This document shows, piece after piece, positions 6,621-62,383 of a DNA stretch of 64,000 bases (position 1 is its first letter; every line of letters begins with the position of its first letter). Below the pieces are notes generated by a model that had not been told where the DNA came from, ran no database searches, and worked only from the letters and a program-made list of their open reading frames with translations. The position numbers were made by a program, and so were the translations under genes. Origin of the DNA: a virus; the IMG/VR virus record IMGVR_UViG_3300027782_000032, positions 64,001 through 128,000 of that record; one strand, given 5' to 3'.

Positions 6621-7940
6621 TTATTGACCAAAGAACCCAGGAACCACAGCTTTAAGTGCACCAGCCACAACACCAGCTCCCTGCAAAGTTCTTTGAGCCT
6701 GTGGAGTCAAGCCTACCAAAGCTCCTAATACTTTTCCACCCAAAGTAGCCTGAACATATCCAGCTCCCATGCCTATGCCAACCCTAGCTATGTCCATAGG
6801 AGTAATAAAGCCAGTGCCTCCTCCCATGCTGTTAGCTGCACTGACAACGCCCATAGTAGCTGCCTGCATATAAGGAGGAGAGAAAGGATCATTAAGAACA
6901 AGCCTATTGAAAGCGTCTACAGGCACAGGGGCTAGGCTTATTCCGCCTCCACCAAAGAAGTTAGATGACTTCTGCATCTCTTCAGATATCTCTGGCTGAA
7001 TCTGAGATAACGCTTCAGAAGCCTTAGTTATAGTTGAGTTTCCAAATATTACGTTTGGTGATGTGAAAGCTTTTATAGAGTTAGAATCCCTATCAGGATT
7101 GCTTTTAGCGTCCCAAGTGTGCATGCCTATTCCACCCATTGCAGCACCTGGAAGAGCACCTACAAGACCGCCTAGCATAGCCATTCTCTTTCTTAGCTTG
7201 CCCTTTTCAAATACTCCAGGGGCTATGTTCTCAGCTATGGTACCTGCTCCGTAGCCTAAGCCAGCAGTTAAGGCGCCACCAGCGATCATGGAAGCTAAAG
7301 GAGTAGGTCCACCTATATGGTCTGAGAACTTTGAAGGCTTAAGCATGAAGGCCTGAGCAACTGGACCAAGCACGCTAGACACCAAGGTGTCACTAGCACA
7401 CTTAACTAATATCCAAGGAGAGTTAAGGTTTGGCTTTCCAACCTTGTTGCTAACTCCTGCCTTCTCAAGAGTAGTGGAGACGTCTCCACTCTCGACAAGT
7501 ACTTTGTCAGATGTTGGACTGATCCACGCGTGCGTACGTGGTAAAAGAGCCCTAGCAACTTTTTCATAAACTTCTTTTGACGCTAAAACATAAGTATTTA
7601 CTAGGTCTGGAACGTAACTCCAAGCCAAGTCTTCAGCAATTTTATCCATCCGTTCTTGCCTCGAAATTGAAGAGGGGATAATATCCCTAGGAGCATGGAC
7701 CTTGAATGAAGTTGGAACGTGCGTTATCCCTACAAACTTTTTGTTAAGATCGGAATCTATGACAAAGTCTTCTGGCTTATCAACTAAAAGATTCCTCAAT
7801 ATTTTGTTCTTTTCATGATAGTTACGCTGATCAGACATCTGCTTGGCTCTAAGCAGCAGGTGAAGATCAGTCTTGGGATTGCGTTCTTCTTGAACTGGCA
7901 TTAGAAGGTCCTCCATCACGATAGTACCAACTCTTGGCAT
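6621..7940 (-). CDS. Hypothetical protein with multiple Gly/Ala-rich hydrophobic segments (possible virion protein)
   Basis: 439-aa ORF; contains one copy of the 14-bp palindrome in frame (SGDVST). Confidence 0.72.
   Translation of the reverse strand: MPRVGTIVMEDLLMPVQEERNPKTDLHLLLRAKQMSDQRNYHEKNKILRNLLVDKPEDFVIDSDLNKKFVGITHVPTSFKVHAPRDIIPSSISRQERMDKIAEDLAWSYVPDLVNTYVLASKEVYEKVARALLPRTHAWISPTSDKVLVESGDVSTTLEKAGVSNKVGKPNLNSPWILVKCASDTLVSSVLGPVAQAFMLKPSKFSDHIGGPTPLASMIAGGALTAGLGYGAGTIAENIAPGVFEKGKLRKRMAMLGGLVGALPGAAMGGIGMHTWDAKSNPDRDSNSIKAFTSPNVIFGNSTITKASEALSQIQPEISEEMQKSSNFFGGGGISLAPVPVDAFNRLVLNDPFSPPYMQAATMGVVSAANSMGGGTGFITPMDIARVGIGMGAGYVQATLGGKVLGALVGLTPQAQRTLQGAGVVAGALKAVVPGFFGQ
7475..7488. 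repeat. Iterated palindrome TGGAGACGTCTCCA, copy 1 (in CDS; 18-bp perfect palindrome 7473-7490)
   Basis: Read directly from the sequence. Confidence 0.95.
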
Positions 7941-8019
7941 ACCAAGCCATAGTTGGATGCCGTTTGGATGAAATTATGTTTAAGGATGGACATATTAACA
8001 AACACGGAGGTTATAACCA

Positions 8020-10284
8020 ATGGTTACTGCTGGAGTTAAGAAGTCTTTAAGTTTAGAGTCTAGGAAAGTAAAGAAAAGGAACGGAAACGTAGTAGCGTTT
8101 GAAGCCACTAAGATTGCATCAGCCGTTGAGAGATGCTTTAAAAACGGACTACAAAGCACAGATGAAGAAGCTCAAGTTGCAGGAGTTAAAGTCTCTAAAG
8201 CCGTTGCTAACATCCTAAACAAGAAGGTTGACGAAGAACCTATAGAAGTTGAAGCACTTCAACATACGGTAATTCAACAGCTATGGGCTTTAGGGTACTT
8301 TGAAGGCGCTGAACACTACACCATATTTAAAGAAAAAAGAAAGCAAGAAAGAGTAAACCATCCAGTAGACCCAGAGCTGAGGCGTCTGGTGGATGAAGAT
8401 AACAACTACTTTCCATCTGCGCTTCAGTACTACCAGTTCATCAGCAAGTTCTCAAAGTGGAACGAAGAACTTGGAAGAAGAGAAACTTGGGGAGAATGCG
8501 TAAACCGAGTAATGAGTTTCTTTGCAAAGCAGGACTTTGCTGAAAAGGTTACCAAGCAAGAGTTCAAAGAACTTAAAGAGTATCTGCAGCGAATGGACGC
8601 CACTCCAGCAATGCGAGTTATTCAGATGGCTGGAAAGGCATTAGATAGGTGCCACGTTGGAGTATACAACTGTAGCTACATGCCAATCACTGACATCAGA
8701 TCGTTCAGTGAGTTACTTTATATTCTCATGCAAGGTACTGGCGCTGGCTTCTCAGTAGAGCGTCGGTATGTTGAGCAGCTGCCTGCTGTAAAAAGACAGA
8801 CTGGCAAGCCACCAGCAAAGATGGGAATCATCGATACAACCGAAGGATGGTGCGATGCCCTCTACGCAGGTATGGAAGCTTGGTTCAATGGTAAAGACAT
8901 TGAGTTTGACTTCAGCAAGATCAGACCAGCTGGAGCAAGACTCAGCATTAAAGGAGGTAGGGCTAGCGGTCCTGATCCTCTCAAAACACTGCTACAGTTT
9001 GCAAGGACGCTTATTCTATCTAGGCAGGGTCGGTCACTTAGCGATGTAGACTGTCATGACCTAGCCTGCATGACTGGAAAGATCGTGCAAGTAGGTGGAG
9101 TTAGAAGAGCTAGTGAGATCTCGCTTAGCGACCTTGACTCTAAAGACATGAGACTGGCTAAGAGCGGAAACTGGTGGGAGAGCAGTATACATCGAACTAT
9201 GGCTAATAACTCAGCCGTATACGATAGCAAGCCTACCTCTATAGAGTTTATGGAAGAGTGGCTATCTTTAGCTAAGAGCGGGTCAGGAGAGCGTGGCATC
9301 TTCAACAGGGATGGCGTGCTTAGGACTCTACCTGAAAGAAGGCAGCCAAGAGACTTCGGCACTAACCCTTGTGCTGAAATTATTCTTAGACCTTATCAGT
9401 TTTGTAACTTGTCTATCGTGGTCGCTAGACACGATGACACTGCTGAGACTCTTAAAAAGAAAGTACGCATAGCTACTATCTTTGGAACTATGCAAGCCTG
9501 CCTGACAGACTTCAAGTACATTCGAAGAGAGTGGAAAGATAACTGCCAAGAAGAAAGGCTACTAGGAGTAGACATCACTGGACAGATGGACTGCCCACTG
9601 CTAAGACCTGGCTCTGAAGGCAGAGATGATCTCCTTAAAAAGCTAAGGTCTGTGGTAGCTAAAACTAATACAGAGTTTGCTGAAAGGTTTGGAATTGGCC
9701 GAGCAGCTGCAGACACTTGTGTTAAGCCATCTGGAGACAGTGCAGTTTTATTTGGATGCTCTTCTGGCATTCATGCTAGGTTCTCTGAGTATTACATCAG
9801 ACGAGTTAGAGAAAGAGCTGATAGCCCTGTAGCTAACATGCTAAGAGACGCTGGAGTTCCTTGGATTCAAGCACCTGAAGATCAGTCGCTTGTATGCTTT
9901 GAGTTTCCATGTGCATCGCCAGAAGGAGCTATTACAAAGGATCAACAAACAGCACTAGAGCAGCTAGACAACTGGATGACTTGGAAGCTTAACTGGGCTG
10001 AGCACTCGGTATCAGCTACTGTGTATCTTGAGCCTAACGAGTGGCTAGATGCAGGACATTGGGTGTATCGTAACTTTGATGCTATCTCTGGCATTAGCTT
10101 CTTACCTAAGAACAATGGCACCTACACAGGAACGCCATACGAAGAGATAGATAAGAATGAGTACACAAGCAGGGTAAACACTTTTCCAAAGATCGACTGG
10201 GCTAAGCTCTCTAGGTACGAGAAGACTGACCATACAGAGTCGTCTCAAACCTACGCTTGCACCGGCGGCGCATGTGAACTGTAA
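8020..10284 (+). CDS. nrdJ: Class II (adenosylcobalamin-dependent) ribonucleotide reductase with N-terminal ATP cone
   Basis: ATP cone (VKKRNGNVVAFEATKI), YNCSY, GTGAGFS, GGVRRASEI, TNPCAEI, FCNLS, KPSG, C-terminal CTGGAC; GGAGG RBS; no nrdB partner nearby. Confidence 0.92.
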   Translation: MVTAGVKKSLSLESRKVKKRNGNVVAFEATKIASAVERCFKNGLQSTDEEAQVAGVKVSKAVANILNKKVDEEPIEVEALQHTVIQQLWALGYFEGAEHYTIFKEKRKQERVNHPVDPELRRLVDEDNNYFPSALQYYQFISKFSKWNEELGRRETWGECVNRVMSFFAKQDFAEKVTKQEFKELKEYLQRMDATPAMRVIQMAGKALDRCHVGVYNCSYMPITDIRSFSELLYILMQGTGAGFSVERRYVEQLPAVKRQTGKPPAKMGIIDTTEGWCDALYAGMEAWFNGKDIEFDFSKIRPAGARLSIKGGRASGPDPLKTLLQFARTLILSRQGRSLSDVDCHDLACMTGKIVQVGGVRRASEISLSDLDSKDMRLAKSGNWWESSIHRTMANNSAVYDSKPTSIEFMEEWLSLAKSGSGERGIFNRDGVLRTLPERRQPRDFGTNPCAEIILRPYQFCNLSIVVARHDDTAETLKKKVRIATIFGTMQACLTDFKYIRREWKDNCQEERLLGVDITGQMDCPLLRPGSEGRDDLLKKLRSVVAKTNTEFAERFGIGRAAADTCVKPSGDSAVLFGCSSGIHARFSEYYIRRVRERADSPVANMLRDAGVPWIQAPEDQSLVCFEFPCASPEGAITKDQQTALEQLDNWMTWKLNWAEHSVSATVYLEPNEWLDAGHWVYRNFDAISGISFLPKNNGTYTGTPYEEIDKNEYTSRVNTFPKIDWAKLSRYEKTDHTESSQTYACTGGACEL

Positions 10285-10288
10285 TGTC

Positions 10289-10337
10289 TGATAGCTAAAA
10301 AAAACACCTCCATGTTCCTAAGAACTGGAGGTGTTTT
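10289..10337. terminator. Bidirectional intrinsic terminator T1 with conserved AGCTATCA tail (minus sense)
   Basis: AAAACACCTCC...GGAGGTGTTTT stem with T-tracts on both sides, between convergent nrdJ and a small ORF. Confidence 0.85.
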
Positions 10338-10339
10338 GT

Positions 10340-10453
10340 TTATTTCACTAGCATTACCCAGGTCTGAGTTATCATAAGCACAGCTAGAAACGCTATAAGC
10401 GAAAATGGTAGAAACAAAAACACAATCTCATCTACCGTATAATTCTTCATCAT
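10340..10453 (-). CDS. 37-aa single-pass membrane peptide (MMKNYTVDEIVFLFLPFSLIAFLAVLMITQTWVMLVK)
   Basis: Below the ORF-track cutoff; GGAG RBS; sole ORF between promoter P1 and terminator T1. Confidence 0.65.
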   Translation of the reverse strand: MMKNYTVDEIVFLFLPFSLIAFLAVLMITQTWVMLVK

Positions 10454-10519
10454 AATCTCCAAGTTAGATATAAAATTAAGAACTCTTACTGAGCTCCTGA
10501 ACACTATTGTATTCAATTC

Positions 10520-10547
10520 ATTATGACACGTTTATGGCCTGAATTAA
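10520..10547 (-). promoter_or_regulatory. Cassette promoter P1 (TTAATTCA-N12-GTCATAAT)
   Basis: One of nine 28-bp copies upstream of small genes; promoter role inferred from -35/-10-like boxes and position. Confidence 0.75.
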
Positions 10548-10556
10548 GGGGGTGTC

Positions 10557-10605
10557 TAATAGCTAAAAAAAGCACCTTCAAACCCCTAAGGGCTGAAGGT
10601 GCTTT
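10557..10605 (-). terminator. Intrinsic terminator T2 with AGCTATTA tail
   Basis: AAAGCACCTTCA...TGAAGGTGCTTT stem plus T-tract after the 164-aa gene. Confidence 0.85.
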
Positions 10606-10613
10606 GGTTAGAT

Positions 10614-11108
10614 CTAGTTTGCAAAAACTTTTCCAGCTTTTGCGTACTTGATTGTAGCTGAGGCGTTTATAGCCTTAAGCGACAGCTGTAGATCCGGTGG
10701 CATCACCGCCAGCTTAGCCCACTGTGGGCTAGTGGATGAGAATGCCTTAGCTGCATCTTTACCAAAGTGGTAAAGTACAGTCTCATCAAAACTATCATTA
10801 GCTAGCTCTGCGGCTAACTCATCCGACGGAAGACGATGAGTCTTGTCGAAAAAGCTAGCCTTAAAACTATCGATGTACGCCACTACATACGCCTTCTTCA
10901 CGGCATCGTAAGCCGACTCCTGCGGAGCCACTTCAATCGCCACCTCAGGCTCTACTGCAGGAGTAGCCTCAGGCTCCTCAAGCAACCTTAAAGCCATTTC
11001 TGAAGCAGCTGCCGATGCCTTCCTATCTGTGTATACCTTACCAAAAACTAGAATTGAGCATACAGAGACCACAGAAATCACAGCCCAAAAAACCTTATTA
11101 GTATTCAT
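10614..11108 (-). CDS. Hypothetical membrane-anchored protein (cassette gene)
   Basis: 164 aa, N-terminal hydrophobic helix, AAAGGAG RBS. Confidence 0.75.
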   Translation of the reverse strand: MNTNKVFWAVISVVSVCSILVFGKVYTDRKASAAASEMALRLLEEPEATPAVEPEVAIEVAPQESAYDAVKKAYVVAYIDSFKASFFDKTHRLPSDELAAELANDSFDETVLYHFGKDAAKAFSSTSPQWAKLAVMPPDLQLSLKAINASATIKYAKAGKVFAN

Positions 11109-11204
11109 GGTTATTTCTCCTTTAATGAGATGGCCACCACAGCCAGTTAATTACAACAGTGCAAGAACTCTTACTGAGCTCCTGAACACTATTGTATTCA
11201 ACTC
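11109..11204 (-). ncRNA. Putative structured 5' leader RNA, copy A (near-identical copy at 45245-45337, partial copy at 10478-10519)
   Basis: About 19-bp interrupted stem (11152-11196) plus a small GGCU/GGCC hairpin before the RBS; most differences between copies keep pairing. Confidence 0.55.
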
Positions 11205-11232
11205 ATTATGACGCAGTTTTGGCCTGAATTAA
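11205..11232 (-). promoter_or_regulatory. Cassette promoter P2
   Basis: TTAATTCAGGCCAAAACTGCGTCATAAT. Confidence 0.75.
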
Positions 11233-11238
11233 GCCCTG

Positions 11239-12012
11239 CTAGTCTATAGGCTTATTTAGATAGGTATCGCATATAAACCCTATGGAGTAACCCTTGTTAA
11301 GTTTGGTAACTACGGTTGTACGGCTTATTCCAAGGTACTTAGCCCAATCCGTCACAGTCATGTCCTTGCCGTTGTACTCATAGGTCTTATGAGTACGTAC
11401 CATATAAGATACTGGGTTTAGGGCTATCTCATCTCCGCTGTATCCTTGATTGTAAAGAAACACGGCTCTGTCATAGTTTAAACCTAGTAGCTTTACCAGA
11501 GCACCAAGCTTCATCGGCTTTCCTAAATATACTAAATCTCTAGACTTGTGCTCTAAAAGCTCTGGGTTTAGGGCGTCCTCTAAGGAAAACCCTCTGGCAA
11601 GCCTAGTAGCTGCTGTGTCGTAGTTTATATTCAAGTCCTTGCAAACCACAGACAATGGAAGCTGCACGCCGTTGTGTTCAACCATATGATTGCTGGTCTT
11701 GTTAAGAGCTTGAAGTGGAATCTTTATCCACTCCATGTTGCCGCATACATACCCTTCGTTATTGTCTATTCTTTCTATGCTGTATTCAGTCTTGGGCTCT
11801 GGGCACACTCCAACCTCGTTAAGAAAGTTTAGAAAGCTATACCTATACAAGTCTCCTACTCCAATACCCCTGCCTCCGTAGTTAGCATACCTATGGTGGT
11901 TAGGATTGTAGCACTTGGCGTTTATTCTCTGCCATGTCCTATACTCCTTTACATACTTAGCTCCCTTGGTGCTAGAGCCTCTTACGTCTCTAGCTGTGAA
12001 TGTGCCCTTCAT
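11239..12012 (-). CDS. Free-standing HNH-family (homing-type) endonuclease with three C-terminal HTH-like repeats
   Basis: CYNPNHHRYANYGGRGI...SIERIDNNEGYVCGNMEW; three G...L/I....RL/KL..GxS repeats. Start moved to ATG 12012 because of AGGAGG at 12021-12026. Confidence 0.82.
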   Translation of the reverse strand: MKGTFTARDVRGSSTKGAKYVKEYRTWQRINAKCYNPNHHRYANYGGRGIGVGDLYRYSFLNFLNEVGVCPEPKTEYSIERIDNNEGYVCGNMEWIKIPLQALNKTSNHMVEHNGVQLPLSVVCKDLNINYDTAATRLARGFSLEDALNPELLEHKSRDLVYLGKPMKLGALVKLLGLNYDRAVFLYNQGYSGDEIALNPVSYMVRTHKTYEYNGKDMTVTDWAKYLGISRTTVVTKLNKGYSIGFICDTYLNKPID

Positions 12013-12025
12013 AAGAGTATCCTCC

Positions 12026-12064
12026 TGATAGCTAAAAAAAGGCCAGAGCATAATGCTCCGGCCT
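12026..12064 (-). terminator. Intrinsic terminator T3 with AGCTATCA tail
   Basis: AGGCCGGAGCA-TTA-TGCTCTGGCCT-TTTTTT-AGCTATCA. Confidence 0.85.
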
Positions 12065-12068
12065 AGGT

Positions 12069-12233
12069 TTACCAGCTCCTTCGAACTGTCACAGATAAGT
12101 GTACCTTATCTATGATCTTGTCGTCCCACGGGCATGCCGTGGTACTGTAGGTACTCTCAACCGAATGAGAAACCTTAGGCGCACATCTGCATCCAGCAGC
12201 TGACAACACCAATACCAAAATTAAAATCCTCAT
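12069..12233 (-). CDS. 54-aa putative lipoprotein (MRILILVLVLSAAGC...)
   Basis: Below the ORF-track cutoff; AAGGAG RBS; basic-hydrophobic-lipobox signal; sole ORF between P3 and T3. Confidence 0.7.
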   Translation of the reverse strand: MRILILVLVLSAAGCRCAPKVSHSVESTYSTTACPWDDKIIDKVHLSVTVRRSW

Positions 12234-12268
12234 CGTAGCACTCCTTTGTTAGATGTAGAATCCATGTA

Positions 12269-12296
12269 ATTATGACGCAAAGACGCTATGGATTAA
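12269..12296 (-). promoter_or_regulatory. Cassette promoter P3
   Basis: TTAATCCATAGCGTCTTTGCGTCATAAT. Confidence 0.72.
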
Positions 12297-12303
12297 GGGT
12301 CGT

Positions 12304-12894
12304 CTACTTCTTTACAAAAGCCCACGAACTGTCTTTAAAGTACCTTATGTTTTCTTTTTTAAATATTTCGTCTACTGCTCTGCCTACGTCAGGCATGCAA
12401 TAGTCATGGCCTGCTATTAAGCCTCCAACCTTTACTTTGTCAGACCAAGCTTGTATGTCAGCTTTAACACTGTCATATGAGTGGTCTGCATCAATGTAGA
12501 CCATATCAATAGTTTCTTTACCAAACTCTTTTGCTAAAACCTCAGACTTAACTTTATGTTCAATTATGTTGTGGTTTCTAGACTTTGTATCTAAAAATTC
12601 TTTGTATATTACAGGAGCCATACTAGGGCTAATATACTCCTCCCAAATGTCACAACATACAACAACCCCAGCGTACTGAGCCATTAGCTCTGCAGAAGCT
12701 CCAGCGTAGCTTCCTACCTCTACAATCTTCCATCCTCTAGTTACTCTATAGTAATCAAGTAAATCTTTTAATCCAAACAGCCTGTTTATTGAAGGCATCT
12801 CTTCGTTAAAATAGTGATCGCTAGGTAAGTTAATAATCCTATACCTGTGTACTACTTTGTCAGCTAAGTTTTTAGTGTCATTATGATACGGCAT
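12304..12894 (-). CDS. Class I SAM-dependent methyltransferase (Methyltransf_24-like)
   Basis: VEVGSYAGAS; DMVYIDADHSYDSVKADI; GGLIAGHDY. Confidence 0.85.
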   Translation of the reverse strand: MPYHNDTKNLADKVVHRYRIINLPSDHYFNEEMPSINRLFGLKDLLDYYRVTRGWKIVEVGSYAGASAELMAQYAGVVVCCDIWEEYISPSMAPVIYKEFLDTKSRNHNIIEHKVKSEVLAKEFGKETIDMVYIDADHSYDSVKADIQAWSDKVKVGGLIAGHDYCMPDVGRAVDEIFKKENIRYFKDSSWAFVKK

Positions 12895-12923
12895 TACTTG
12901 AGTCTCCTTATAGTCTGTTGTTA

Positions 12924-13487
12924 CTACCTAAAAGGCGGACCTTCGTACCAAGTAACCAAGCTGTATCTAGTGCCTTTAGTAACTGGAGTAACCCTATGTT
13001 TTAGAAATGAAGGAAACACTAAAGTGTTACCCCTAGCGCGCATGTGCTCTGGCTTAGGAGGTTGAGAAGTGTTTAGTTGAAACTCAAAGTCTCCACCTTC
13101 ATAGTCTGCTGGGTCTGACAACTGTAGCACAAATGACAGCTTTCTTTGAGTGTTTTGACCGTTCCTAGGTAGCCACACTATGTCTTCGTGCCATCCATAG
13201 TGTCCTTTGTTTTCAGCTTGGTACTCTGTAAACTGAACCTCATAGAAAAAGTTGAGGTCAAATCCAAAAGAAGTATTGGCTCTTTTGCATACGTTGTCTA
13301 TGTCTGTGTAAAGCCACTGCCAGTCTGCAGCGTTCCTGTCTAGCCATCTTACTTTAGACGTTCTAAGGTCAGGCACTTGGCCGTACGTAGTAGCCTCTAC
13401 TGGAGTAATAGTAAGCGCTTGAGTGATTATGTTGTTACACTTTTCTGGTGAAGCATAGTTGTGCCACAGCTGCCACATAGATTGCAT
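12924..13487 (-). CDS. 2OG-Fe(II) oxygenase (prolyl-hydroxylase-like)
   Basis: WHED (HxD), RKLSFVLQLSDPADYEGGDF, FPSFLKHRVTPVTKGTRYSLVTW. Confidence 0.9.
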   Translation of the reverse strand: MQSMWQLWHNYASPEKCNNIITQALTITPVEATTYGQVPDLRTSKVRWLDRNAADWQWLYTDIDNVCKRANTSFGFDLNFFYEVQFTEYQAENKGHYGWHEDIVWLPRNGQNTQRKLSFVLQLSDPADYEGGDFEFQLNTSQPPKPEHMRARGNTLVFPSFLKHRVTPVTKGTRYSLVTWYEGPPFR

Positions 13488-13629
13488 CGTATCTCCTTTT
13501 CGTTAGACCCCGCTATTTAAGCTTAACGGTAGTCCTAAGTCAATAACAAGGGTGATACTACTAGCCAATAAAATACACTATTGTTATTATGCCTACTTGC
13601 TTAGTAACTACAAACTAGTGGATTGTTTT

Positions 13630-14304
13630 ATGGAATATAACGAATACTTTATCAAACGAATTAATAGGTATCAGTACGCTATTAATACGTATCCTAACAC
13701 AATGAATGATGAGCGAGGTGAAGCCTTAAGTAAGCTAGACTTGTTCGAGGGATGTAAATCTTTAGATCTAGGCAACAGCGGCCTAATGAACTTTACCAGC
13801 ATAGACTTTGAATTTAAGAAGCTTCCATTTGAAGACAAGTCATTTGACAGAGTTGTGATCATGGCAGTGCTGCATCATATATCAGTAGAGAATCGTGAGA
13901 TCCTGTACAAAGAGTGTATGCGTATCCTTAAGCAAGGTGGAAAGCTTGTGGTATCTGATGTTATTAAAGATTCGAAACAAGCCTACTGGCTTAATAACAT
14001 AGTAGACAAGTACAACAGCATAGGTCACAAAGGATTATTCTTTGATAAGTCAGATGAAGAGCTATTTAGGAAAACCGGATTTGATGTAAGAAGTGAAGTT
14101 GCTTCTTACTTCTGGTACTTCAAAAATAAGTCTGAACTAGAAGACTTTATAACTAACCTGTTTGGAATGGATCTAGCTGATAGCGTGTACGACATAGTTA
14201 ATGAGCACCTTGGGCTGAGCCCACACGGAGAAGAAGGGTTTAAATTTGAATGGAAGCTCATCTACTTTATAGCCACTTGTCCCCTAACTCTTTTTCAAGA
14301 TTAA
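13630..14304 (+). CDS. Class I SAM-dependent methyltransferase (Methyltransf_11-like)
   Basis: LPFEDKSFDRVVIMAVLHHI...CMRILKQGGKLVVSD. Start uncertain (ORF track gives 13552). Confidence 0.8.
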   Translation: MEYNEYFIKRINRYQYAINTYPNTMNDERGEALSKLDLFEGCKSLDLGNSGLMNFTSIDFEFKKLPFEDKSFDRVVIMAVLHHISVENREILYKECMRILKQGGKLVVSDVIKDSKQAYWLNNIVDKYNSIGHKGLFFDKSDEELFRKTGFDVRSEVASYFWYFKNKSELEDFITNLFGMDLADSVYDIVNEHLGLSPHGEEGFKFEWKLIYFIATCPLTLFQD

Positions 14305-16187: not shown

Positions 16188-16201
16188 TGGAGACGTCTCC
16201 A
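16188..16201. repeat. Iterated palindrome copy 2 (intergenic, just after the stop of a KLKKNR-tail gene)
   Basis: Read directly from the sequence. Confidence 0.95.
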
Positions 16202-17113: not shown

Positions 17114-17161
17114 AGTAACCTCCTTACTTTTATCTAGTCACCTAAAACTTAGTAAAGTAAT

Positions 17162-17944: not shown

Positions 17945-17954
17945 TTTATTCTCC

Positions 17955-18845: not shown

Positions 18846-18856
18846 AGTCTTATCTC

Positions 18857-19753: not shown

Positions 19754-19764
19754 ATTATTATCTC

Positions 19765-20706: not shown

Positions 20707-20707
20707 G

Positions 20708-21654: not shown

Positions 21655-21666
21655 AACTAACTCCTT

Positions 21667-21680
21667 TGGAGACGTCTCCA
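21667..21680. repeat. Iterated palindrome copy 3 (between a stop codon and the next RBS)
   Basis: Minus strand reads TAG-TGGAGACGTCTCCA-AAGGAG. Confidence 0.95.
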
Positions 21681-22955: not shown

Positions 22956-25214
22956 TTAAGCCCCTTTCAACCCTTGGTTATAACTGTTTTGTAATACACC
23001 TTCTGCTTGCCCGTTCTGCTGCTTCTGCTGGCCACCAAACATGCTGTGAAGCCCGTAGCCTGCTACGCCTGTGCCTAGAGCGCCTAAAAGGTACTTGGCC
23101 CAGGGGTTGTTCTGCATGAAGTTAACTACTGGAAGAGCGTATCCAGCGGTGCGCCTCTCAGCTTCGTACTGACCTGCAGAGTCGTACATGCCTTGCTGCA
23201 TGCCTCTACCTACATCTTTAACAGTGTCAATAGCTGGCGCAACGCCTGGAACTTTCCTAACTGTGTTGCCAATGTTAGTAGCCATAGTACCTAGACCTTG
23301 AGCTACTCCGCCTGCGTAGTTAGATGCGTTGTCCTTCATAGACCTTAGTTTACTTTTAGCAATAACACCCTTGGCCATAGTAAATGGGTTTAAAGATTTA
23401 CCTAAGTAACTATCAACCCCGTAGTCAATTGCTTTGTCTGCCCATCCATTAATCGTACTAGAGACGTCTCCAGTTCCTTTAAAGTAATTGCTTACGTTGT
23501 TAGCCATAGCAGGAAGGTCTGGTCGATTACTCATAGCCTGAAGGCGCTCAAAAGCCTCTGGGCTGTACATTGACTGCAAAGCTGTAGACCCTGCGTTCAT
23601 TACTCCTGACCCTATAGACTTTAAAGAAGGAGAAGGACTAGAAGCTGCAGGCGCTGCAGCCTTAGGAGCTGGAGCTGATCCTGCACTTGGTGCAGCAACG
23701 TCAGACTGCTTGCCCATACCCATGAGCGTTCCGCCTGCTGATAAGAAGTTTTTTCCAAGCCTTTGAGCTCCAGAAATAACCTTACCTGCGCTATCAGTGG
23801 CTTGTCCCATAGCCTTCTCAGCACCTTTAGCTTGATTGTATCGCCTAGTTACTTCCCCTGGGCTGGTCCAGCCTGGAGCCCTGACCCATTTTTCTACCTC
23901 TGAAGTTGCGGCTGCTCCAACCTGCCTGCCAGTGTTCTGCAACGACTTTTTCATGTTAGCAAAGTCAAAGCCTCTAGCTGGTGCAGTACCTAGTATGGAA
24001 GGATCTAGCTTAGCTTTTGAGCTTATACTAGAGAAGTCAAAGTTACGTGCAGGAGCTGTACCTGACGCAGAAGGAGCTGCATTAGCCCTTCCTAGCTGAG
24101 ACCGTTGCCTATAAGCCATTTCTCTTGATTTGTTACTATCGTCTATATTGTTAGCTATGCTGTGGAATGCACTTCCAAACTCTCCTACTGACTTTACAGG
24201 GTTAGCAAAGTTTTGATAGACCTGTTGCATGTAAGATGGCCCTTCAGCTTGCTTAGTTGATTGGCCCCTATCATTGTTATCTAGAACCAAGCCGCCAGCG
24301 TAAAGGCTTTCTGGAGAGCCATGGAAATGCTCTTTTACCATGCGCTTTAGCACTCGCTGCTCTGCCTGCCTGTATAGGTCTTGAAAGTTCAGCTTCTTAA
24401 GCTCTGGGTACTCTTCAGCGAAGTCTGAAAGCTCCCAGTCCTTCTTAGGGCGCTGCGCTCTAGGAATCGCAGGCTTATTACCAAACATAGACCTGTACAT
24501 GGATCCAGGTATGTTTTTCCATAACTTGACCATGCTCTGTGCTTGCTTAACCCCGCCAGCTGGATCAAAGCCTAGATTCTTCTCTGTTACTCTTCTTAAC
24601 GCATTACGCGCAGTACCAAGCGGAGCAACTGGCTTTAAACCTTTTTGATTAAAACTCATCTTTCCAGGGACTGGCTTAATTGGCTTAGTTACCTGCATAC
24701 CCTCTGAGGAGTCAGAGTTGATGGCGGTTTCTTCTTCATCACCAGATCCTCTGCCAGGACTGGTAATAACAGAAGACAGCTTAGACAGTAGCGTACGCTC
24801 TGCAGCAGCTTTCAAAGGAGACGAGCCTGCCCATATAGAGTACAAATATTTTACTGCAGCAAGGCTACTGCTCTTCTCAACCTTCTTAAGCTTAGTGTAA
24901 TACTCAGGATCTTGAGTTAAGTGATCCATGGCTATCTCTTTAGCCATGCCAGTGTCGTTAGTGTGCTCTTTTTCTTCGTCAATGCCTTCATCGAGTACTC
25001 CTTTAGAGAAGTCTGAAGGCTTCTTGTCATCGCCTACTCCACCCTTAAGCTTGTTAGTTTCTAAAGCCTTCTTCTCTGCTTGATCTTCTACATGCTCTGG
25101 TAGGTCTTTCTTACCTGTAGCGGTAGACCACTCATCGCAATCCCATGAGCCAGCTTGGCCTTTACCCTTGAGGAGGTAACATAATTTACGTTGTGAATCA
25201 GATTTGAACGGCAT
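22956..25214 (-). CDS. Large multi-module protein with an N-terminal EHT...AxEIAxDHL...YY module (DUF5661-like from recall) and low-complexity C-terminus
   Basis: EEKEHTNDTGMAKEIAMDHLTQDPEYYTKL. Start moved to MPFKS (25214) with GGAG RBS. Confidence 0.7.
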   Translation of the reverse strand: MPFKSDSQRKLCYLLKGKGQAGSWDCDEWSTATGKKDLPEHVEDQAEKKALETNKLKGGVGDDKKPSDFSKGVLDEGIDEEKEHTNDTGMAKEIAMDHLTQDPEYYTKLKKVEKSSSLAAVKYLYSIWAGSSPLKAAAERTLLSKLSSVITSPGRGSGDEEETAINSDSSEGMQVTKPIKPVPGKMSFNQKGLKPVAPLGTARNALRRVTEKNLGFDPAGGVKQAQSMVKLWKNIPGSMYRSMFGNKPAIPRAQRPKKDWELSDFAEEYPELKKLNFQDLYRQAEQRVLKRMVKEHFHGSPESLYAGGLVLDNNDRGQSTKQAEGPSYMQQVYQNFANPVKSVGEFGSAFHSIANNIDDSNKSREMAYRQRSQLGRANAAPSASGTAPARNFDFSSISSKAKLDPSILGTAPARGFDFANMKKSLQNTGRQVGAAATSEVEKWVRAPGWTSPGEVTRRYNQAKGAEKAMGQATDSAGKVISGAQRLGKNFLSAGGTLMGMGKQSDVAAPSAGSAPAPKAAAPAASSPSPSLKSIGSGVMNAGSTALQSMYSPEAFERLQAMSNRPDLPAMANNVSNYFKGTGDVSSTINGWADKAIDYGVDSYLGKSLNPFTMAKGVIAKSKLRSMKDNASNYAGGVAQGLGTMATNIGNTVRKVPGVAPAIDTVKDVGRGMQQGMYDSAGQYEAERRTAGYALPVVNFMQNNPWAKYLLGALGTGVAGYGLHSMFGGQQKQQNGQAEGVLQNSYNQGLKGA

Positions 25215-28678: not shown

Positions 28679-29236
28679 CTACACTACTGACAGCTTACTC
28701 ACCTCATTATCCTCAGTAACTCTCTTCTTCTTACACCCTACTGGAATGTAGAACCCCAGTTGTGGAGACGTCTCCAATCCGTAGCTTCGTCGGATGGACT
28801 CTAGGTCATCGCTCTTAATAGAAATAGCCCACAGCTTTTCATACTCACCTGTTGCAGGCAGCTCAACTATAGGGCCAAGAGTGTAGTGATAAGAGTGACC
28901 GCGCTCAGTGATATGGCTAGTTCCGCCTAGCTTATCTACCTCTTCTTTGGTCATTACCTTGATAGCGCACTCAGTTCTATTGTTACGCACAACGAATTCA
29001 GCCCCTGGCTCATCTAGAGCGTCAAAGACACCTTTGATAAGCGAAGAGGGGACTGTTAGTTCTAGGTTACCGCTGGGACCTGCTTGAAGCCTGCCAGCAA
29101 GAGCGTGCACTGAAGCGTGATCCGCACTCTTGTTCATATGGCCATGCGCCTGCCCAAACGAGAACATCTCAGCGTTGAGAGCCTTGAGCCACTCAGCGCC
29201 TTTGATAAGTCCTAATGATATCGGAGGTATGGTCAT
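28679..29236 (-). CDS. Hypothetical protein
   Basis: 185 aa; ATGA-coupled to the upstream gene; contains the palindrome (LETSPQ). Confidence 0.7.
   Translation of the reverse strand: MTIPPISLGLIKGAEWLKALNAEMFSFGQAHGHMNKSADHASVHALAGRLQAGPSGNLELTVPSSLIKGVFDALDEPGAEFVVRNNRTECAIKVMTKEEVDKLGGTSHITERGHSYHYTLGPIVELPATGEYEKLWAISIKSDDLESIRRSYGLETSPQLGFYIPVGCKKKRVTEDNEVSKLSVV
28763..28776. repeat. Iterated palindrome copy 4 (in CDS)
   Basis: Read directly from the sequence. Confidence 0.95.
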
Positions 29237-37927: not shown

Positions 37928-38755
37928 TTAGAGTGACCCTGGGGGCATGTATGGAAAGTCGGAGTCTGAATCATCATCTTCATCGCCAAACTCTTCGTCT
38001 TCTTCCAACTCCTCGTCAGTAGGGGCTCTGAACACGAAGTTTGCTTCCGATATCAACTCAAGCCTTGGCAGCTTTGGAAATATAATCCTCATAGCTTGCC
38101 TTATCTTTTCAACATCGTTGCATATCTCACAATCATCGGGGTCATTGACTCCTATGTCAACAGTTATCTCCATATAAGAGTCGGATGGATCGGAATCATA
38201 GCCTGAATCCTCCATATCCTGATCTTCATTAAAGGAGTAATCGCTGTCACTGTCTGAGTCACTATCGCTGTCTGAATCGCTATCGTATCCTGGCTCGCCT
38301 TCTCTACCCTTATGATCACCTAGGTCGTAGTCAACATGCCATTCTGAACTCTCAGAATCAGAGTCGCTATCTGAATCGCTGTCTGAGTCAACCTTGTCAT
38401 TACCAAGAATGCCAAGAGCCTCTTCCATCTGGTCGTCTGACATGTAAGGCTTAGTGGAGACGTCTCCACTGGATGGTATAATAGCTGAGCACTGCATAAA
38501 CAGAGGACCTACTGCTCCCTTAGTCTGGGAGTCCTTTACTGTCTTCTCAAAGTACTCTGATAGCTTGTACTTAGACTTGAAGCCTTTCTCATATAGTATC
38601 TTGATGATCTCCATGGAGTCATACACGGCTATAGTTCCGCTAGCTGGAGCTGGCACTACACCAACAAAAGCTCTGTCAAACCCTTTCATGAGCTTGATGT
38701 TAGGGTATAGCTTAGTTATTGCCTCTGCTGTCATGTGGTTTCGCTTATGCTTCAT
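37928..38755 (-). CDS. Highly acidic protein with (DS)n repeats
   Basis: Globular N-terminus (KGFDRAFVGV...AVYD), then two DSDSDS tracts and an E/D-rich tail. Confidence 0.7.
   Translation of the reverse strand: MKHKRNHMTAEAITKLYPNIKLMKGFDRAFVGVVPAPASGTIAVYDSMEIIKILYEKGFKSKYKLSEYFEKTVKDSQTKGAVGPLFMQCSAIIPSSGDVSTKPYMSDDQMEEALGILGNDKVDSDSDSDSDSDSESSEWHVDYDLGDHKGREGEPGYDSDSDSDSDSDSDSDYSFNEDQDMEDSGYDSDPSDSYMEITVDIGVNDPDDCEICNDVEKIRQAMRIIFPKLPRLELISEANFVFRAPTDEELEEDEEFGDEDDDSDSDFPYMPPGSL
38455..38468. repeat. Iterated palindrome copy 5 (in CDS; 18-bp perfect palindrome)
   Basis: Read directly from the sequence (SGDVST). Confidence 0.95.
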
Positions 38756-42711: not shown

Positions 42712-42725
42712 TGGAGACGTCTCCA
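42712..42725. repeat. Iterated palindrome copy 6 (directly upstream of the P4 -35-like box)
   Basis: Read directly from the sequence. Confidence 0.95.
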
Positions 42726-43241: not shown

Positions 43242-43255
43242 TGGAGACGTCTCCA
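43242..43255. repeat. Iterated palindrome copy 7 (directly upstream of P5)
   Basis: Read directly from the sequence. Confidence 0.95.
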
Positions 43256-43260
43256 CTATG

Positions 43261-45366: not shown

Positions 45367-45380
45367 TGGAGACGTCTCCA
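45367..45380. repeat. Iterated palindrome copy 8 (directly upstream of P8)
   Basis: Read directly from the sequence. Confidence 0.95.
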
Positions 45381-47495: not shown

Positions 47496-48241
47496 GAGTC
47501 TCTCCTCAAATGTCCTTTTCCTGCTCCTTTACCACTAGGCTTTCTAGTAACGCCACGGTAATGAAACACGAAGCTTGAGCAAGCTACTGCACTTGTTATA
47601 CCTAGCTTCTTCCACCTTCCCATTAACTCGTCTTCATTACGAGTCATCTTGTACTTTGGATTGAAGAACAAGCCTGGGCTCATAGCTCCCATCAGCCAAG
47701 TGGTTGCTTTAGCAGCTATGCAGAAACCGTTTAGAGGTGAACTTACAGTTTTGCCTGAATGAAGACGAAGCAACTCAGACGACACCTTTGATATGTAGAC
47801 GTCTGAGTCGCTAACTTTAAACTCTGGGTAGTACTTAATGACGTTTTGGCTAGCTCTGTGGCCCGGCGCATTCGTCGTCGGACCCACTACGCCTGCGCCG
47901 CCTTCTAGAGCCTCTTCGATTCCCAGCATCCAGTTCGGTGGAAACTTCAGGTCTGAGTTCCCCGCTACTATTATCTTGGGGTTTTGGGTCAACGCTAGCT
48001 GTATTCCCTTGTTCCACGACCTTGTCAGGTTCTTGTCGTTCTTCTCGAACCTGTACAGGAGCAGCCGGTGCTTCGGATACTTCTCCCATATGGCAGGATT
48101 CCACAACGGGCTCCCGTCGTCCACAAGTACCGCCAAGCTGTTCGCAGAGCTCGCCAGCAGGCTTTCCACAGCTATCTTCGCATAATCGAACTGATTGTAC
48201 GTCGGTATTACAACAGCCACCAGAGGCTGGAAACGTCTCAA
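47492..48241 (-). CDS. GT2-family glycosyltransferase (TTG start)
   Basis: VVIPTYNQ, LVDDGS, GNSDLKF. Confidence 0.85.
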   Translation of the reverse strand: MRRFQPLVAVVIPTYNQFDYAKIAVESLLASSANSLAVLVDDGSPLWNPAIWEKYPKHRLLLYRFEKNDKNLTRSWNKGIQLALTQNPKIIVAGNSDLKFPPNWMLGIEEALEGGAGVVGPTTNAPGHRASQNVIKYYPEFKVSDSDVYISKVSSELLRLHSGKTVSSPLNGFCIAAKATTWLMGAMSPGLFFNPKYKMTRNEDELMGRWKKLGITSAVACSSFVFHYRGVTRKPSGKGAGKGHLRRDS

Positions 48242-49763
48242 CAGCTACTGGGCTGGCCTCCTCCTCTTTAGCTGACTTAGTTTCAATAGCTTCATCAATT
48301 GAAGGCACATTGTCGATGAAAGTGTCGATTGGATTAAACTCTTGAGGCTCAGGATCAGGTAGTGGAGACGCCTCCAATAGGAGCAGCTCTTTAAGTCCTT
48401 CAAGCTTTGTTGGAGTCAGCTGGTAATCACAAGATGCTAGAATGCACCTTACGTGCCCTCCTTCAACTTCGTCAGAAGGTAAAACTTCTTCTAAAGTAAC
48501 TCCGTAGTTGTCCTTTAGGATACTGTAAGACTTGCTAAGGAAAGCTGAACCTATTGAGTAGTTAGATTGAATGCAGTTGTTTATTACTATCTTAGTTCCT
48601 GGCACGCACAGCCTAAGTATGTGTGCAAAATCAGACGCTATAGTCTCTGGTGACCTGCCGCCATCAATGCTTACTATGGTAACGTTAGGCATGTCAGCGG
48701 TTGCGGTTGGTAGGGTTTCTCTAGTATCACCTTTGATAAGCTGAACTAAGCTAGCACCTGCAGCTGTAATCTTCTGTCTAGCTAAATCCCTGCTTGCTGG
48801 ATCATGCTGGCCCTTTAGGTGCTCCCTTTCTTTAATCTGTTCCGTAGCTTTTTCAAACATGTCAAAACCGTAGAACTCAATGTTAGTCCTACCAAGCCTC
48901 TTAGCTAAAGCTACTAAGGTAGCTGACCTGTCTGCGTTATGTACGCCAATATCGAGTATGCGGTAAGGCTTATTCTTCTTACTTTCGTTAATAGTGGAAT
49001 TAACTGCTAAAGTAAGGTGATCGTATCTGCTCATCTCTGACTCCTTGTTAAAAGGTAACTCTATTCCAGACCTATAATACTTAGATATGTCTTTAGGCTT
49101 TGGAAGCTTAGACAAACCAAGCTCTTTTCTAAACTGTGCATAATCCTCTTGATGCACGTCTCCGCCACATCCCAACAATGGATATAGCGACAATACAGCT
49201 ACGCCTGCCTTCTCTCTAGCTAGCCTCCTAGCTTTATAAGTCCATAGTCTATACTCTCTATAGACTTCTGAAGCAGATAAACCATGAAACTGAATATGCT
49301 GGTCATGCCCGTGATGGTCACCAGCTATATCGCCTAGGTCTACTCCGACTAGAATAACAGATCTAGCACCCATGCGACAGGCTAAATCAATAGCTGTTAG
49401 CTGTATTCCTTTTCCAAGGAACAAAGTATCAGACTTACCACCTATGAACTCCTTCCATTCATAAGAGGTATAAAACACATATATTGACGGGTCATTAAGC
49501 CGTAAAAACGTTGGAGCTTTATGCTTCACTAGCCACTTAGTTGGCTTTACCTTTTTAGCTTTAACAAGCTCTCTATATTCAACCTCAAGCTCTGGATGCA
49601 CAGTTATGCTGTACATAGGTTCAATAAGCTTATAGGCTTGATTAAGACCTATCGTTACTCTTCCTTTAAAGAAATTCTTTGGAAACAACCTAGCTGTAGG
49701 CCCTGTTCCAACCACATATATGTCTGCACCAACGTGCTTCTTAATTAAAGTATTTATTCTCAT
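47850..49763 (-). CDS. DUF115/MptE-like domain joined in frame to a class I methyltransferase-like domain
   Basis: YVVGTGPT...IGLNQ...ILVGVDL; then ILDIGVH...GFDMF...IKGDT...SIDGG. Internal AAGGAG+ATG at 49034; the C-terminal 130 aa overlap the GT2 gene. Confidence 0.7.
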   Translation of the reverse strand: MRINTLIKKHVGADIYVVGTGPTARLFPKNFFKGRVTIGLNQAYKLIEPMYSITVHPELEVEYRELVKAKKVKPTKWLVKHKAPTFLRLNDPSIYVFYTSYEWKEFIGGKSDTLFLGKGIQLTAIDLACRMGARSVILVGVDLGDIAGDHHGHDQHIQFHGLSASEVYREYRLWTYKARRLAREKAGVAVLSLYPLLGCGGDVHQEDYAQFRKELGLSKLPKPKDISKYYRSGIELPFNKESEMSRYDHLTLAVNSTINESKKNKPYRILDIGVHNADRSATLVALAKRLGRTNIEFYGFDMFEKATEQIKEREHLKGQHDPASRDLARQKITAAGASLVQLIKGDTRETLPTATADMPNVTIVSIDGGRSPETIASDFAHILRLCVPGTKIVINNCIQSNYSIGSAFLSKSYSILKDNYGVTLEEVLPSDEVEGGHVRCILASCDYQLTPTKLEGLKELLLLEASPLPDPEPQEFNPIDTFIDNVPSIDEAIETKSAKEEEASPVAVETFPASGGCCNTDVQSVRLCEDSCGKPAGELCEQLGGTCGRREPVVESCHMGEVSEAPAAPVQVREERQEPDKVVEQGNTASVDPKPQDNSSGELRPEVSTELDAGNRRGSRRRRRRSGSDDECAGPQS

Positions 49764-54479: not shown

Positions 54480-55241
54480 TTAAAGGACGCCTTCTTCTAT
54501 AACCTTTGCAGGGTCGACGTCTCTTTTGCTAGCTCTATCATCATACTCTTTTTGTGGAGACGTCTCCACTGGCTTATCTTCAACAAGCTCTTGTATTAGT
54601 TCAGCCGGCATAGACTTCTCTTGAGAGATTGGAACCAAGCAATGCTCGTAAGGTCCAAACTTGTGCTGAAGAATAGGAGGTTTAACTATAAACAAGCTGT
54701 CTATACCTTCTACCATCACCCCTATGTAAGCGTCAGCCTCGTTAGCTAGTTTGCTGGTAAACGGATAAAACTCTCCAGGCCCTGCATACCTCATATCAGT
54801 TGTAAGCACTAGATACCCTGGGGTTATTGTAGCACCGTGATACTTGTAGTTTAAAGTTGCTAAGCTTGGCATGTCAAAGTACACCCTTACCATAGGAGGT
54901 GTAACTGATGCCTCTGGCAGCTGTGCTGCAGGATGAACATGATTAGCACCATCAATCGTAGATGCTACCGTGCCTAGACTAGGAGGAGTAGTAGCAGATG
55001 CAGTAGTAGAGAATCGCCTTAAGTTATCAGATATCATCTTGGACCTTTCTGCTTGAGCAAGTTTTCTAAGGTCCTGACTATTGTCATCTTTGACCTTGTA
55101 AGGATTGGCTGTTGGCTTAATAGTATTTAAATCAATAACAAAGGAGTCACTCTCGTGCGGGTCTACTATCATCTTGGTAACTGATCTGCTGTGGTCTATA
55201 GTAGACCCTCCTGTTACTGGTGCTAGTCTTGAATCTGACAT
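54480..55241 (-). CDS. Hypothetical protein
   Basis: Start moved to 55241 (AAGGA RBS); contains the palindrome (VETSPQ). Confidence 0.7.
   Translation of the reverse strand: MSDSRLAPVTGGSTIDHSRSVTKMIVDPHESDSFVIDLNTIKPTANPYKVKDDNSQDLRKLAQAERSKMISDNLRRFSTTASATTPPSLGTVASTIDGANHVHPAAQLPEASVTPPMVRVYFDMPSLATLNYKYHGATITPGYLVLTTDMRYAGPGEFYPFTSKLANEADAYIGVMVEGIDSLFIVKPPILQHKFGPYEHCLVPISQEKSMPAELIQELVEDKPVETSPQKEYDDRASKRDVDPAKVIEEGVL
54555..54568. repeat. Iterated palindrome copy 9 (in CDS)
   Basis: Read directly from the sequence. Confidence 0.95.
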
Positions 55242-55316
55242 TAGTGAATCCTTCCTAAGTTTAACTCTACTGTAACCTAACACAGCGTTTTACTGTTTAT
55301 AAGGATAATAAGCAAC

Positions 55317-61630: not shown

Positions 61631-61633
61631 TAA

Positions 61634-62383
61634 TCACCCTTCTTTCTTAAATCTGTCGTTCCATACTTCAAGTTGAGTCTTTTTAGAGCCAAGTGGCGGC
61701 TCGTTATAACCTCGTCTATCAGATGCAGATTCTTTTCCGTTATCGTCTGCGTTTACAGCGACGCCAGCCTTATAGCTTGAAAGTTTAAGGCCTTGATGCC
61801 TTATTAGCTCTCCTAAAAGGACATCTCCTCCGCAATGCTTAAGCATTGGATGAGGCCACTTATACTTGTTTATCACACTTGTCTTAATAATCCACCACCC
61901 TCCTGTAGCAAACTTTGTCATCTCTGGTCTTCCAGGAAGAGGTCCACTTACAAACCAGTCACAGTGGAGACGTCTCCAATCGGTCTGTCCTGGTAATATG
62001 GGTATGTGATATATAGCGCCTGCCATGTCTGATTCGCTATCGTTCATAAACTTCTCAGTAGCTGATAGCCAAGCCAATGGATTAGAGTCTTTTATGAAGC
62101 TATCGTCATCAAACCACATGACGTAGTCAGTGGTAATAGGCTTTGCTTTGAAAAGCCTATCCATCATAGGGTATTTGAATATCTGTGGGTTAAAGCTAAG
62201 GTTGACTAACCTGTCGCTATGAATGAATAGGTCTGAGACTACCTTATTGGTAGCCTCAGACGTCTCGTTTAATCCTATTCTAACTTCGACTCCGCTTTTA
62301 TAAAGCTGGCTTACAGGGCTTAAACACCTTGAAGCCAGCTTAGGGTAGTCTCCGTACATCAGACAGCATACTGTAGTGCTCAA
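61634..62383 (-). CDS. GT2-like glycosyltransferase
   Basis: YVMWFDDDS, GGWW, GGDVLLG. Confidence 0.75.
   Translation of the reverse strand: MSTTVCCLMYGDYPKLASRCLSPVSQLYKSGVEVRIGLNETSEATNKVVSDLFIHSDRLVNLSFNPQIFKYPMMDRLFKAKPITTDYVMWFDDDSFIKDSNPLAWLSATEKFMNDSESDMAGAIYHIPILPGQTDWRRLHCDWFVSGPLPGRPEMTKFATGGWWIIKTSVINKYKWPHPMLKHCGGDVLLGELIRHQGLKLSSYKAGVAVNADDNGKESASDRRGYNEPPLGSKKTQLEVWNDRFKKEG
61965..61978. repeat. Iterated palindrome copy 10 (in CDS, third reading frame: WRRLH)
   Basis: Read directly from the sequence. Confidence 0.95.

Follow-up and report, generated by a model that had tools for sequence, protein, structure and literature searches.

The stretch of viral DNA analysed here (the window; 64,000 nucleotides) corresponds to bases 64001–128000 of the IMG/VR virus record IMGVR_UViG_3300027782_000032 (190,371 bp; labelled G000). 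It contains ten exact copies of the 14-bp palindrome TGGAGACGTCTCCA, against 0.00 in 100 dinucleotide shuffles, and the whole record contains 23, against 4e-4 expected from composition. These sites are regularly spaced over nearly the whole phage chromosome, are kept under purifying selection in related genomes whose flanking DNA has diverged, and are confined to a single clade. Their symmetry and distribution are consistent with sites at which a dimeric protein would anchor or be loaded so as to partition or mark the phage chromosome, a plausible reading that is preferred here to the alternatives, if tentatively.

An earlier note on this DNA had listed ten perfect and three near-perfect copies in the window. 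All ten perfect copies were located and all three near-copies are present, the first of them lying at 23459 and not at 23461. This near-copy (23459..23472) has a single mismatch (TAGAGACGTCTCCA) and represents the commonest variant among the relatives; the one at 48363..48376 also has one mismatch (central T to C), and the one at 48228..48241 has two and is possibly a chance occurrence. Over the whole record, inexact copies amount to three with one mismatch and one with two, compared with composition expectations per genome of 0.02 and 0.4, respectively. Nineteen of the 23 exact copies lie inside open reading frames (ORFs) and are read in all three frames, as GDVST (9), ETSP (7) or WRRL (4). 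Since the genes of G000, nearly all of which are encoded on the minus strand, reach a coding density of 94%, this proportion matches random placement relative to genes. An assembly or adaptor artefact is rejected: reading frames stay open across the copies, positions are conserved across genomes, and assemblies made independently (JGI, ENA and Logan) contain the copies as well.

Comparison of G000 with five IMG/VR relatives (G001–G005), which are syntenic with it at 65–76% DNA identity (90% for G005), reveals strong conservation of the word itself. Of the 16 sites located in DNA alignable to G001 or G002, 15 are letter-perfect there, with diverged flanks. Third-codon positions within the word are identical at 90 of 90 positions in orthologous pairs (a count conditional on the partner genome having a site), compared with 51–76% in the neighbouring 90 nucleotides. 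Loss of the sites by synonymous change at neutral rates, an outcome that the earlier note had named as counting against its inference, is clearly not what is found. The 10–60 bp beside the sites are less conserved than the genome average, indicating that the sites sit in tolerant protein segments. Distant homologues from phages that lack the array also differ at the encoded residues, with LVMQP or LVVPN in place of LETSP, ANDVDV in place of IGDVST and WLTQQ in place of WRRLH. These sequence comparisons support selection on the DNA word and not on the protein, as the earlier note had proposed for DNA or RNA.

The five window copies that had been assigned to coding sequence are clearly intragenic. 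The palindrome at 7475..7488 is read as GDVST in ORF 6621–7940 (−) and is kept at the orthologous place in G001 and G002. That at 28763..28776 is read as ETSP in a 2H-phosphoesterase-like ORF (28679–29236 (−)), where outgroups have LSALPN or LPEKIE. The remaining three are located at 38455..38468 (GDVST; ORF 37928–38755 (−)), 54555..54568 (ETSP; ORF 54480–55283 (−)) and 61965..61978 (WRRL; ORF 61634–62383 (−)), the last of which is replaced in outgroups by WLTQQ or a gap.

The spacing of the sites, given in the earlier note as roughly 4–10 kb outside a cassette island, is regular, and more so than had been claimed. At a density of one site per 7.7 kb, the gaps show a genome-wide coefficient of variation (CV) of 0.47, compared with ~1 for random placement (P=5e-5 versus uniform placement, or 1 in 20,000). 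In the core stretch 34176–102455 of the genome, nine gaps of 5.5–9.7 kb have a mean of 7.6 kb and a CV of 0.17. A rhythm of ~8 kb is also found in G002, which has six consecutive gaps of 6.9–8.1 kb, in G004 and G005, and in a lineage of 55% GC. In G004, site positions persist together with this rhythm, and more than half of the copies carry one scattered mismatch. The irregular short gaps of G000 separate three copies, 0.5–2 kb apart, that are duplicates of one cassette module, and a gap of 15.9 kb contains, at genome position 42006, a one-mismatch copy that divides it into two halves and that is matched by a perfect copy in G002. Both near-complete genomes include a palindrome-free zone of 20–25 kb (G000, 185050 to the contig end plus 1–14863; G001, 66793–92270), which may mark genome ends or an early region. 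This zone contains the sole stretch of mixed gene orientation, and within it the 12-mers AGGAAACCAAGG (42 copies) and AGGCTATCAAGG (35 copies) are repeated at G000 215–5228 across ORFs with DUF7486 and LRR-like matches.

The full motif is an 18–20 bp dyad with the consensus TAGTGGAGACGTCTCCACTA, as shown by a logo of 51–78 sites from six genomes. Its 14 core positions are invariant in this set, and preferences extend into the flanks on both sides (A/T at −2 and G/T at −1, mirrored by C/A at +14 and T/A at +15), with positions −3 and +16 leaning to T and A, respectively. The mirrored flanks show no base-pair covariation, as Watson–Crick pairs number 46 against 47 expected and 44 against 45 expected. 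Each half-site is thus selected separately, as would be the case for two protein subunits on a duplex, unlike a stem. Half-sites on their own are no more frequent than a Markov model predicts (TGGAGAC, 43 observed and 43 expected), which indicates that selection acts on the complete dyad only. Sub-words show no sign of restriction avoidance (GACGTC, GAGAC) beyond a mild shortfall of GACGTC (40 observed, 60 expected). The two-fold symmetry and the independent flank preferences of the half-sites fit the dimeric binding protein proposed in the earlier note; binding by such a protein is what we infer from them.

A perfect palindrome might also act through its structure, either as an RNA hairpin formed in long transcripts of uniform direction (for processing, antitermination or as a boxB-like tag) or as an extruded DNA hairpin or cruciform similar to N4 promoters. 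Such a palindrome gives the same RNA from either strand, and the 18-mer folds as RNA into a 7-bp stem with an ACGU loop (−9.6 kcal/mol; z = −3.9), a modest fold. Phage N4 virion polymerase reads DNA hairpins. By analogy with phage Arash, the group to which G000 belongs would package its RNA polymerase in the virion, and G000 encodes a CsrA homologue. However, the loop is self-complementary, which a hairpin does not need, and the short stem would have to form inside translated ORFs, with the GGA buried in it, whereas CsrA favours a GGA that is exposed in a loop. No compensatory pairing change is seen at the variable flanks and mismatch variants are never compensated (the invariant 14-bp core being uninformative in this respect), so that it is the sequence rather than the pairing that is conserved. 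A structural signal is accordingly considered very unlikely. An intrinsic terminator or a REP/BIME-type element is rejected, as the flanks have no T-run and the copies are mostly intragenic; the true cassette terminators are separate hairpins upstream of the palindrome.

Three window copies abut promoters, next to TTAATC-N16-CATAAT, in agreement with the earlier note. The first (42712..42725) lies between a terminator, followed by TTAGCTATCA, and a promoter at 42683–42710 (−); the second (43242..43255) belongs to a duplicate of this palindrome–promoter module, with its promoter at 43213–43240 (−), and the third (45367..45380) to another copy, with its promoter at 45338–45365 (−). These promoters belong to a sharply defined phage class, C-TTAAT(T/C)-N13-GCGTCATAAT, that is conserved in G000–G005. 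Each genome or contig has ~5–10 of them, and a hairpin terminator together with the fixed word TTAGCTAT often precedes the promoter. Instances in the window are found at 10547, 11232, 12296, 42710, 43240, 44219, 44702, 45365 and 56522, all on the minus strand, and another at G000 183459.

Dispersed operators resembling stoperators or P1 C1 sites, at which a phage or host regulator would block or boost transcription locally, could account for this arrangement. The three sites are directly upstream of the −35 box with the dyad centre at about −42.5 (estimated from hexamer positions), a classic class-II activator or operator position from which a bound dimer could touch sigma. Two more sites are found just upstream of conserved genes, namely 16188, located 55 bp upstream of the PhoH gene 15483–16133 (−), and 21667, upstream of the C39-peptidase gene 20708–21292 (−). 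However, the palindrome abuts a promoter solely in duplicates of one module, three in G000 and two in its 90% relative G005, and none of ~20 promoters of the same class in G001–G004 carries it. The 19 sites in ORFs have neither a promoter-like flank nor an orientation, and regular spacing is not expected of operators. A host regulon is not visible either, as a search for the 18-mer in 596 Gb of cellular genomes gave seven unrelated and unclustered hits, at chance level. Operators are therefore a distinctly unlikely explanation of the array, and promoter control, which the earlier note had advanced as one of the roles of the site, is a lineage-specific add-on at most.

The last two window copies follow the TAG stops of basic-tail genes, as had been noted. 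The palindrome at 16188..16201 is intergenic, 3 nucleotides past the TAG-TAG stop of a variable basic-tail ORF (16205–17113 (−)), and that at 21667..21680 touches the TAG stop of the basic-tail ORF 21681–22292 (−). At both places, identity to the relatives (75–92%) ends exactly at the palindrome and the DNA beyond is replaced by unrelated sequence; at 16188, the left flank is 84–92% identical to G001 and G002 and the right flank is unrelated. The surrounding block (window 16205–22932; G000 79–93 kb) consists of hypervariable orphan genes sharing basic C-terminal tails (KLKKKNR-stop), among which only the genes for PhoH, the C39-like peptidase and the 2H phosphoesterase are conserved between genomes.

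Such sharp edges, together with the copying of the palindrome–promoter module in front of different cargo genes, are what would be expected if the palindromes were boundaries of recombination or module exchange, or a repeat that spreads selfishly. However, most sites are ancient, orthologous and embedded in core genes with both flanks homologous, and they show no target duplications and no longer shared flanks. In a recombination-hotspot test, identity as a function of distance from the site is flat, with no rise, and core sites show no excess of breakpoints. Fourteen base pairs, moreover, cannot encode mobility, and this explanation appears most improbable. Nor do the sites coincide with an origin-type flip of strand composition, since the right-minus-left GC skew is −0.002 ± 0.011 and AT skew shows no step.

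The G000 record is 92% complete with a GC content of 42.6%, and genes identical to its own are found in freshwater-lake metagenomes. Its genes include those for a multisubunit RNA polymerase of bacterial type, for sigma factors and for an SNF2 helicase. One ORF of 1485 aa (window 2–3865, extending to G000 63408; (−)) combines the beta subunit of the polymerase with the N-terminal portion of beta-prime. Also encoded are a family-A DNA polymerase, a DnaB-like helicase, SbcC, UDG and PhoH, and the genome carries a class II ribonucleotide reductase and a large glycosyl- and methyl-transferase island. Among cultured phages, Salmonella phage Arash and Vibrio phages D69, D148 and D181 come closest, their polymerase beta subunits being ~30% identical to that of G000; virion proteomics of Arash detected the polymerase, sigma and a helicase (PMC10585845). 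The CsrA homologue (61 aa; Pfam CsrA E=5e-21) is encoded beyond the window at G000 152096–152281 (+), is unusual for a phage and is kept in G001, G003 and G005. A Cys-rich 154-aa ORF at G000 164694–165158 (−) is 84–94% conserved inside the clade, absent from outgroups and without Pfam match.

The array is restricted to one part of this group. A scan of IMG/VR retrieved at least eight further contigs with multiple copies of the word at similar spacing, five of which are the relatives compared above, and the lineage of 55% GC, which retains the local gene order of the clade, has two perfect copies 7.7 kb apart. Outside the clade, five related outgroup records, searched whole, contain no copy of the word at ≤1 mismatch; two of these are complete 204-kb genomes, in which no other iterated palindrome is found. 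Likewise, 39 outgroup loci around the polymerase genes (~55% identity) and the cultured relatives Arash and Vibrio phage D69 contain neither the word nor another iterated palindrome. On the genomes compared, the array is an innovation of one subclade, and a clade-specific protein that reads the sites is expected as a consequence. In the literature searched, the word itself is absent and an evenly spaced phage palindrome is not described for any phage; the paper on Arash mentions no palindrome (PMC10585845). Arash (OQ632216) has its own non-palindromic repeated 14-mer, CAAACGTTGTAACC, and a word resembling an extended −10 element, TGGTATAAGTAA, with 10 copies of each; both are probably promoter elements of that phage.

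A protein that could read the palindrome was sought among the ORFs of G000 by Pfam scans, in which ~70 ORFs were covered individually (ten at a time) and two batches of 71 ORFs were represented by their top 25 families. Most core or conserved ORFs have no Pfam match. Among the matches listed, the only candidates for DNA binding or nuclease activity are ORF 11242–12051 (−) of the window and a small HNH protein of the packaging region. The latter is a classic HNH endonuclease of 116 aa (CxxC…HH…N…H; G000 42908–43258 (−)) amid structural and packaging genes; it has a homologue in outgroup G006 (tblastn) and is probably of the terminase-associated kind. The highly conserved neighbours of the sites were rejected as readers, since they encode PhoH, a membrane coiled-coil protein and two enzymes, a C39 peptidase and a 2H phosphoesterase.

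ORF 11242–12051 is the best candidate for a reader of the palindrome, an assignment that must be regarded as doubtful. The ORF has 270 aa, compared with 256–261 aa in its homologues, which start ~13 codons later, and it matches PHROG 3377, labelled ‘HNH endonuclease' (E=8e-45). The predicted model shows an N-terminal HNH-like beta-beta-alpha motif at residues 90–117, followed by three tandem helix-turn-helix (HTH) repeats of ~50 aa with weak HTH_7/8/17 hits and a weak resemblance to winged HTH domains of the MerR/Xis/BldC/RacA type (Z 2.7–3.7). In the HNH-like motif, all 30 homologues carry Arg at the position of the general-base His; the Asn residues are conserved, and an invariant Tyr is located in the loop between the two strands. 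The nearest solved fold is that of PacI, which is the top or second match and a weak one (Foldseek E=1.0, TM 0.52; VIA Z 4.7). PacI is an HNH enzyme that cleaves a palindromic site as a homodimer, and its general base is a Tyr rather than a His (PMC4081073). A Foldseek search with the whole model gave nothing significant, and the profile of the candidate gave nothing at E≤1 against sequences of the protein data bank. Prediction of a homodimer returned a score of zero, which counts neither for nor against. Each motif-bearing lineage with sequence from this region has one copy of the gene, in the same neighbourhood, and all outgroups lack it. Just upstream is a 54-aa ORF (window 12069–12233 (−)) that accompanies the HNH-like gene in all lineages and whose product carries a lipobox (…AAGC) as well as a signal peptide. 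It looks like a small lipoprotein, for which reason it was rejected as a reader, and perhaps serves superinfection exclusion or as a spanin.

The resemblance of the candidate to nucleases bears on the principal rival explanation, which holds that the palindromes are programmed nick or break sites at which a nuclease, be it the clade-specific HNH-like protein or a different one, would cut either a single strand or both. The outcome would be a nicked genome similar to that of T5, or regularly spaced 3′ ends at which recombination-dependent replication would start, clamps would be loaded or torsion would be relieved. Fourteen invariant base pairs represent nuclease-grade specificity, and DNA-recognition domains were found in a single clade-specific ORF, a member of a PHROG labelled HNH endonuclease. 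This ORF has an invariant Tyr in the beta-beta-alpha loop, and PacI, its nearest solved fold by a weak match, uses a Tyr as general base. SbcC/Rad50-type and other recombination and replication genes are encoded as well. However, replacement of the general-base His by Arg in 30 of 30 homologues makes activity uncertain. Strand composition does not flip at the sites, and neither identity nor the number of breakpoints is raised around core sites. Metagenome contigs also read straight through the sites, although assemblies cannot reveal nicks. Taken together, cleavage at the sites is unlikely. A target of a homing endonuclease, which would be expected once, beside the place where the gene inserts, and lost or disrupted in carrier genomes, was rejected, as 23 intact sites persist in genomes carrying the HNH-like gene.

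A further proposal, which remains rather doubtful, is that a dedicated protein, possibly a domesticated relative of HNH homing endonucleases, binds or nicks the exact 18–20 bp dyad every ~7.6 kb and so acts as a ruler of the chromosome. If true, the genome would be divided into equal units for replication, transcription or packaging, and such a periodic, sequence-encoded architecture would, as far as is known, be new for viruses.

The preferred reading of the palindromes as anchoring or loading sites can be detailed as follows. A dimer or pseudo-dimer with two-fold symmetry would read double-stranded DNA, each subunit contacting one half-site of 9–10 bp (TAGTGGAGAC). One high-affinity site would be maintained per ~7–8 kb over nearly the whole chromosome, to serve a genome-wide and distance-dependent DNA transaction and not the control of particular genes. 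The bound proteins might connect the sites with one another, or load a factor whose range is limited, by which the 190-kb DNA would be split into loops or topological domains of ~7.6 kb while it is replicated, transcribed or packaged. In the duplicated cassette module, where the site is beside the −35 box, the bound protein could in addition be an operator-binding factor or activator. We infer here that a protein binds, that it originates from the phage and that its binding has an effect on the chromosome.

Several considerations weigh against this interpretation. A six-frame search of the whole 190-kb record for ParB_N (PF02195) gave nothing at E≤1, with control genomes positive, and among the Pfam matches listed no HTH protein or regulator is present except ORF 11242–12051. 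The co-occurrence of this candidate with the array is weak evidence because ~70 ORFs are equally clade-specific, and its three tandem HTH modules would more naturally read an asymmetric site. The near-total invariance of 14 bp is stricter than the specificity of most architectural proteins and closer to that of nucleases, and the one-mismatch copies of G004 show that the requirement can relax. Finally, we know of no process that demonstrably needs a spacing of 7–8 kb.

If a reader exists, the array would show how a large phage measures or partitions its DNA, whether into loops, torsional domains or nick-primed replication units or for self-marking, and a specificity for 18–20 bp, whether rare-cutting or rare-binding, might provide a tool. 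Independently of the reader, the word is a simple sequence marker for a clade of uncultured freshwater phages whose relatives package a bacterial-type RNA polymerase in the virion.

Several known systems share part of these properties. The sites of RacA (ram, in Bacillus subtilis), MatP (matS), Noc (NBS) and SlmA (SBS) are palindromes of 12–16 bp, dispersed in ~20–70 genic and intergenic copies and read by dimeric proteins for chromosome-scale anchoring, domain organisation or occlusion; ram, for example, is a 14-bp inverted repeat with ~25 copies. The phage sites are likewise dispersed palindromes selected irrespective of gene context. However, the cellular arrays occupy one macrodomain and are irregular and more degenerate, whereas the phage array covers the whole genome at ~7.6 kb with 14 invariant positions. 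No homologue of these four readers was found, the MatP, Noc and SlmA families not having been searched individually.

The parS sites of ParB, including the dispersed centromere sites of the phage-plasmid N15, are also palindromes of 16–18 bp with a central CG, sometimes intragenic and read by a dimer, and ParB clamps spread over ~10 kb per site, a range that would make a spacing of ~8 kb meaningful. Unlike parS, the phage sites are not few and close to an origin or par locus, as 23 of them extend over ~170 kb, and no ParB_N is encoded; there is no indication of a plasmid or prophage lifestyle in this phage. Of the role in genome organisation, segregation or packaging suggested in the earlier note, the existence of a genome-wide signal under selection is upheld and the function itself may be as outlined above, but a parS-type system is rejected, as the genome lacks a gene for a ParB-type protein.

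Stoperators of cluster A mycobacteriophages and the C1 operators of P1 also comprise dozens of nearly identical sites (13–17 bp) read by one phage protein. These sites are asymmetric, oriented with transcription, mostly intergenic, unevenly spaced and involved in temperate repression, whereas the palindrome described here is a perfect dyad, mostly intragenic (19 of 23) and linked to promoters in one duplicated module only. The hrs of baculoviruses, too, are repeated palindromes spread over a large viral genome, where they are read by an IE1 dimer and act as distant enhancers and putative origins. They differ from the single, exact and mostly intragenic phage sites in being clustered, imperfect 30-bp palindromes in the non-coding, AT-rich DNA of eukaryotic viruses. 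HIP1 is another palindrome under DNA-level selection in all frames; it has 8 bp and occurs about once per kb, compared with 14–20 bp, about one copy per 8 kb, even spacing and positional conservation for the phage word. The nicks of T5 and phiKMV-like phages similarly occupy fixed, sequence-defined positions along a linear phage genome, but their sites are asymmetric, confined to one strand and unevenly spaced, unlike the palindromes. Dispersed palindromes that bind proteins are already known from bacterial chromosomes and a few temperate phages, but no array is known that is both even in spacing and letter-perfect and that takes precedence over protein coding along the whole genome of a phage of lytic type.

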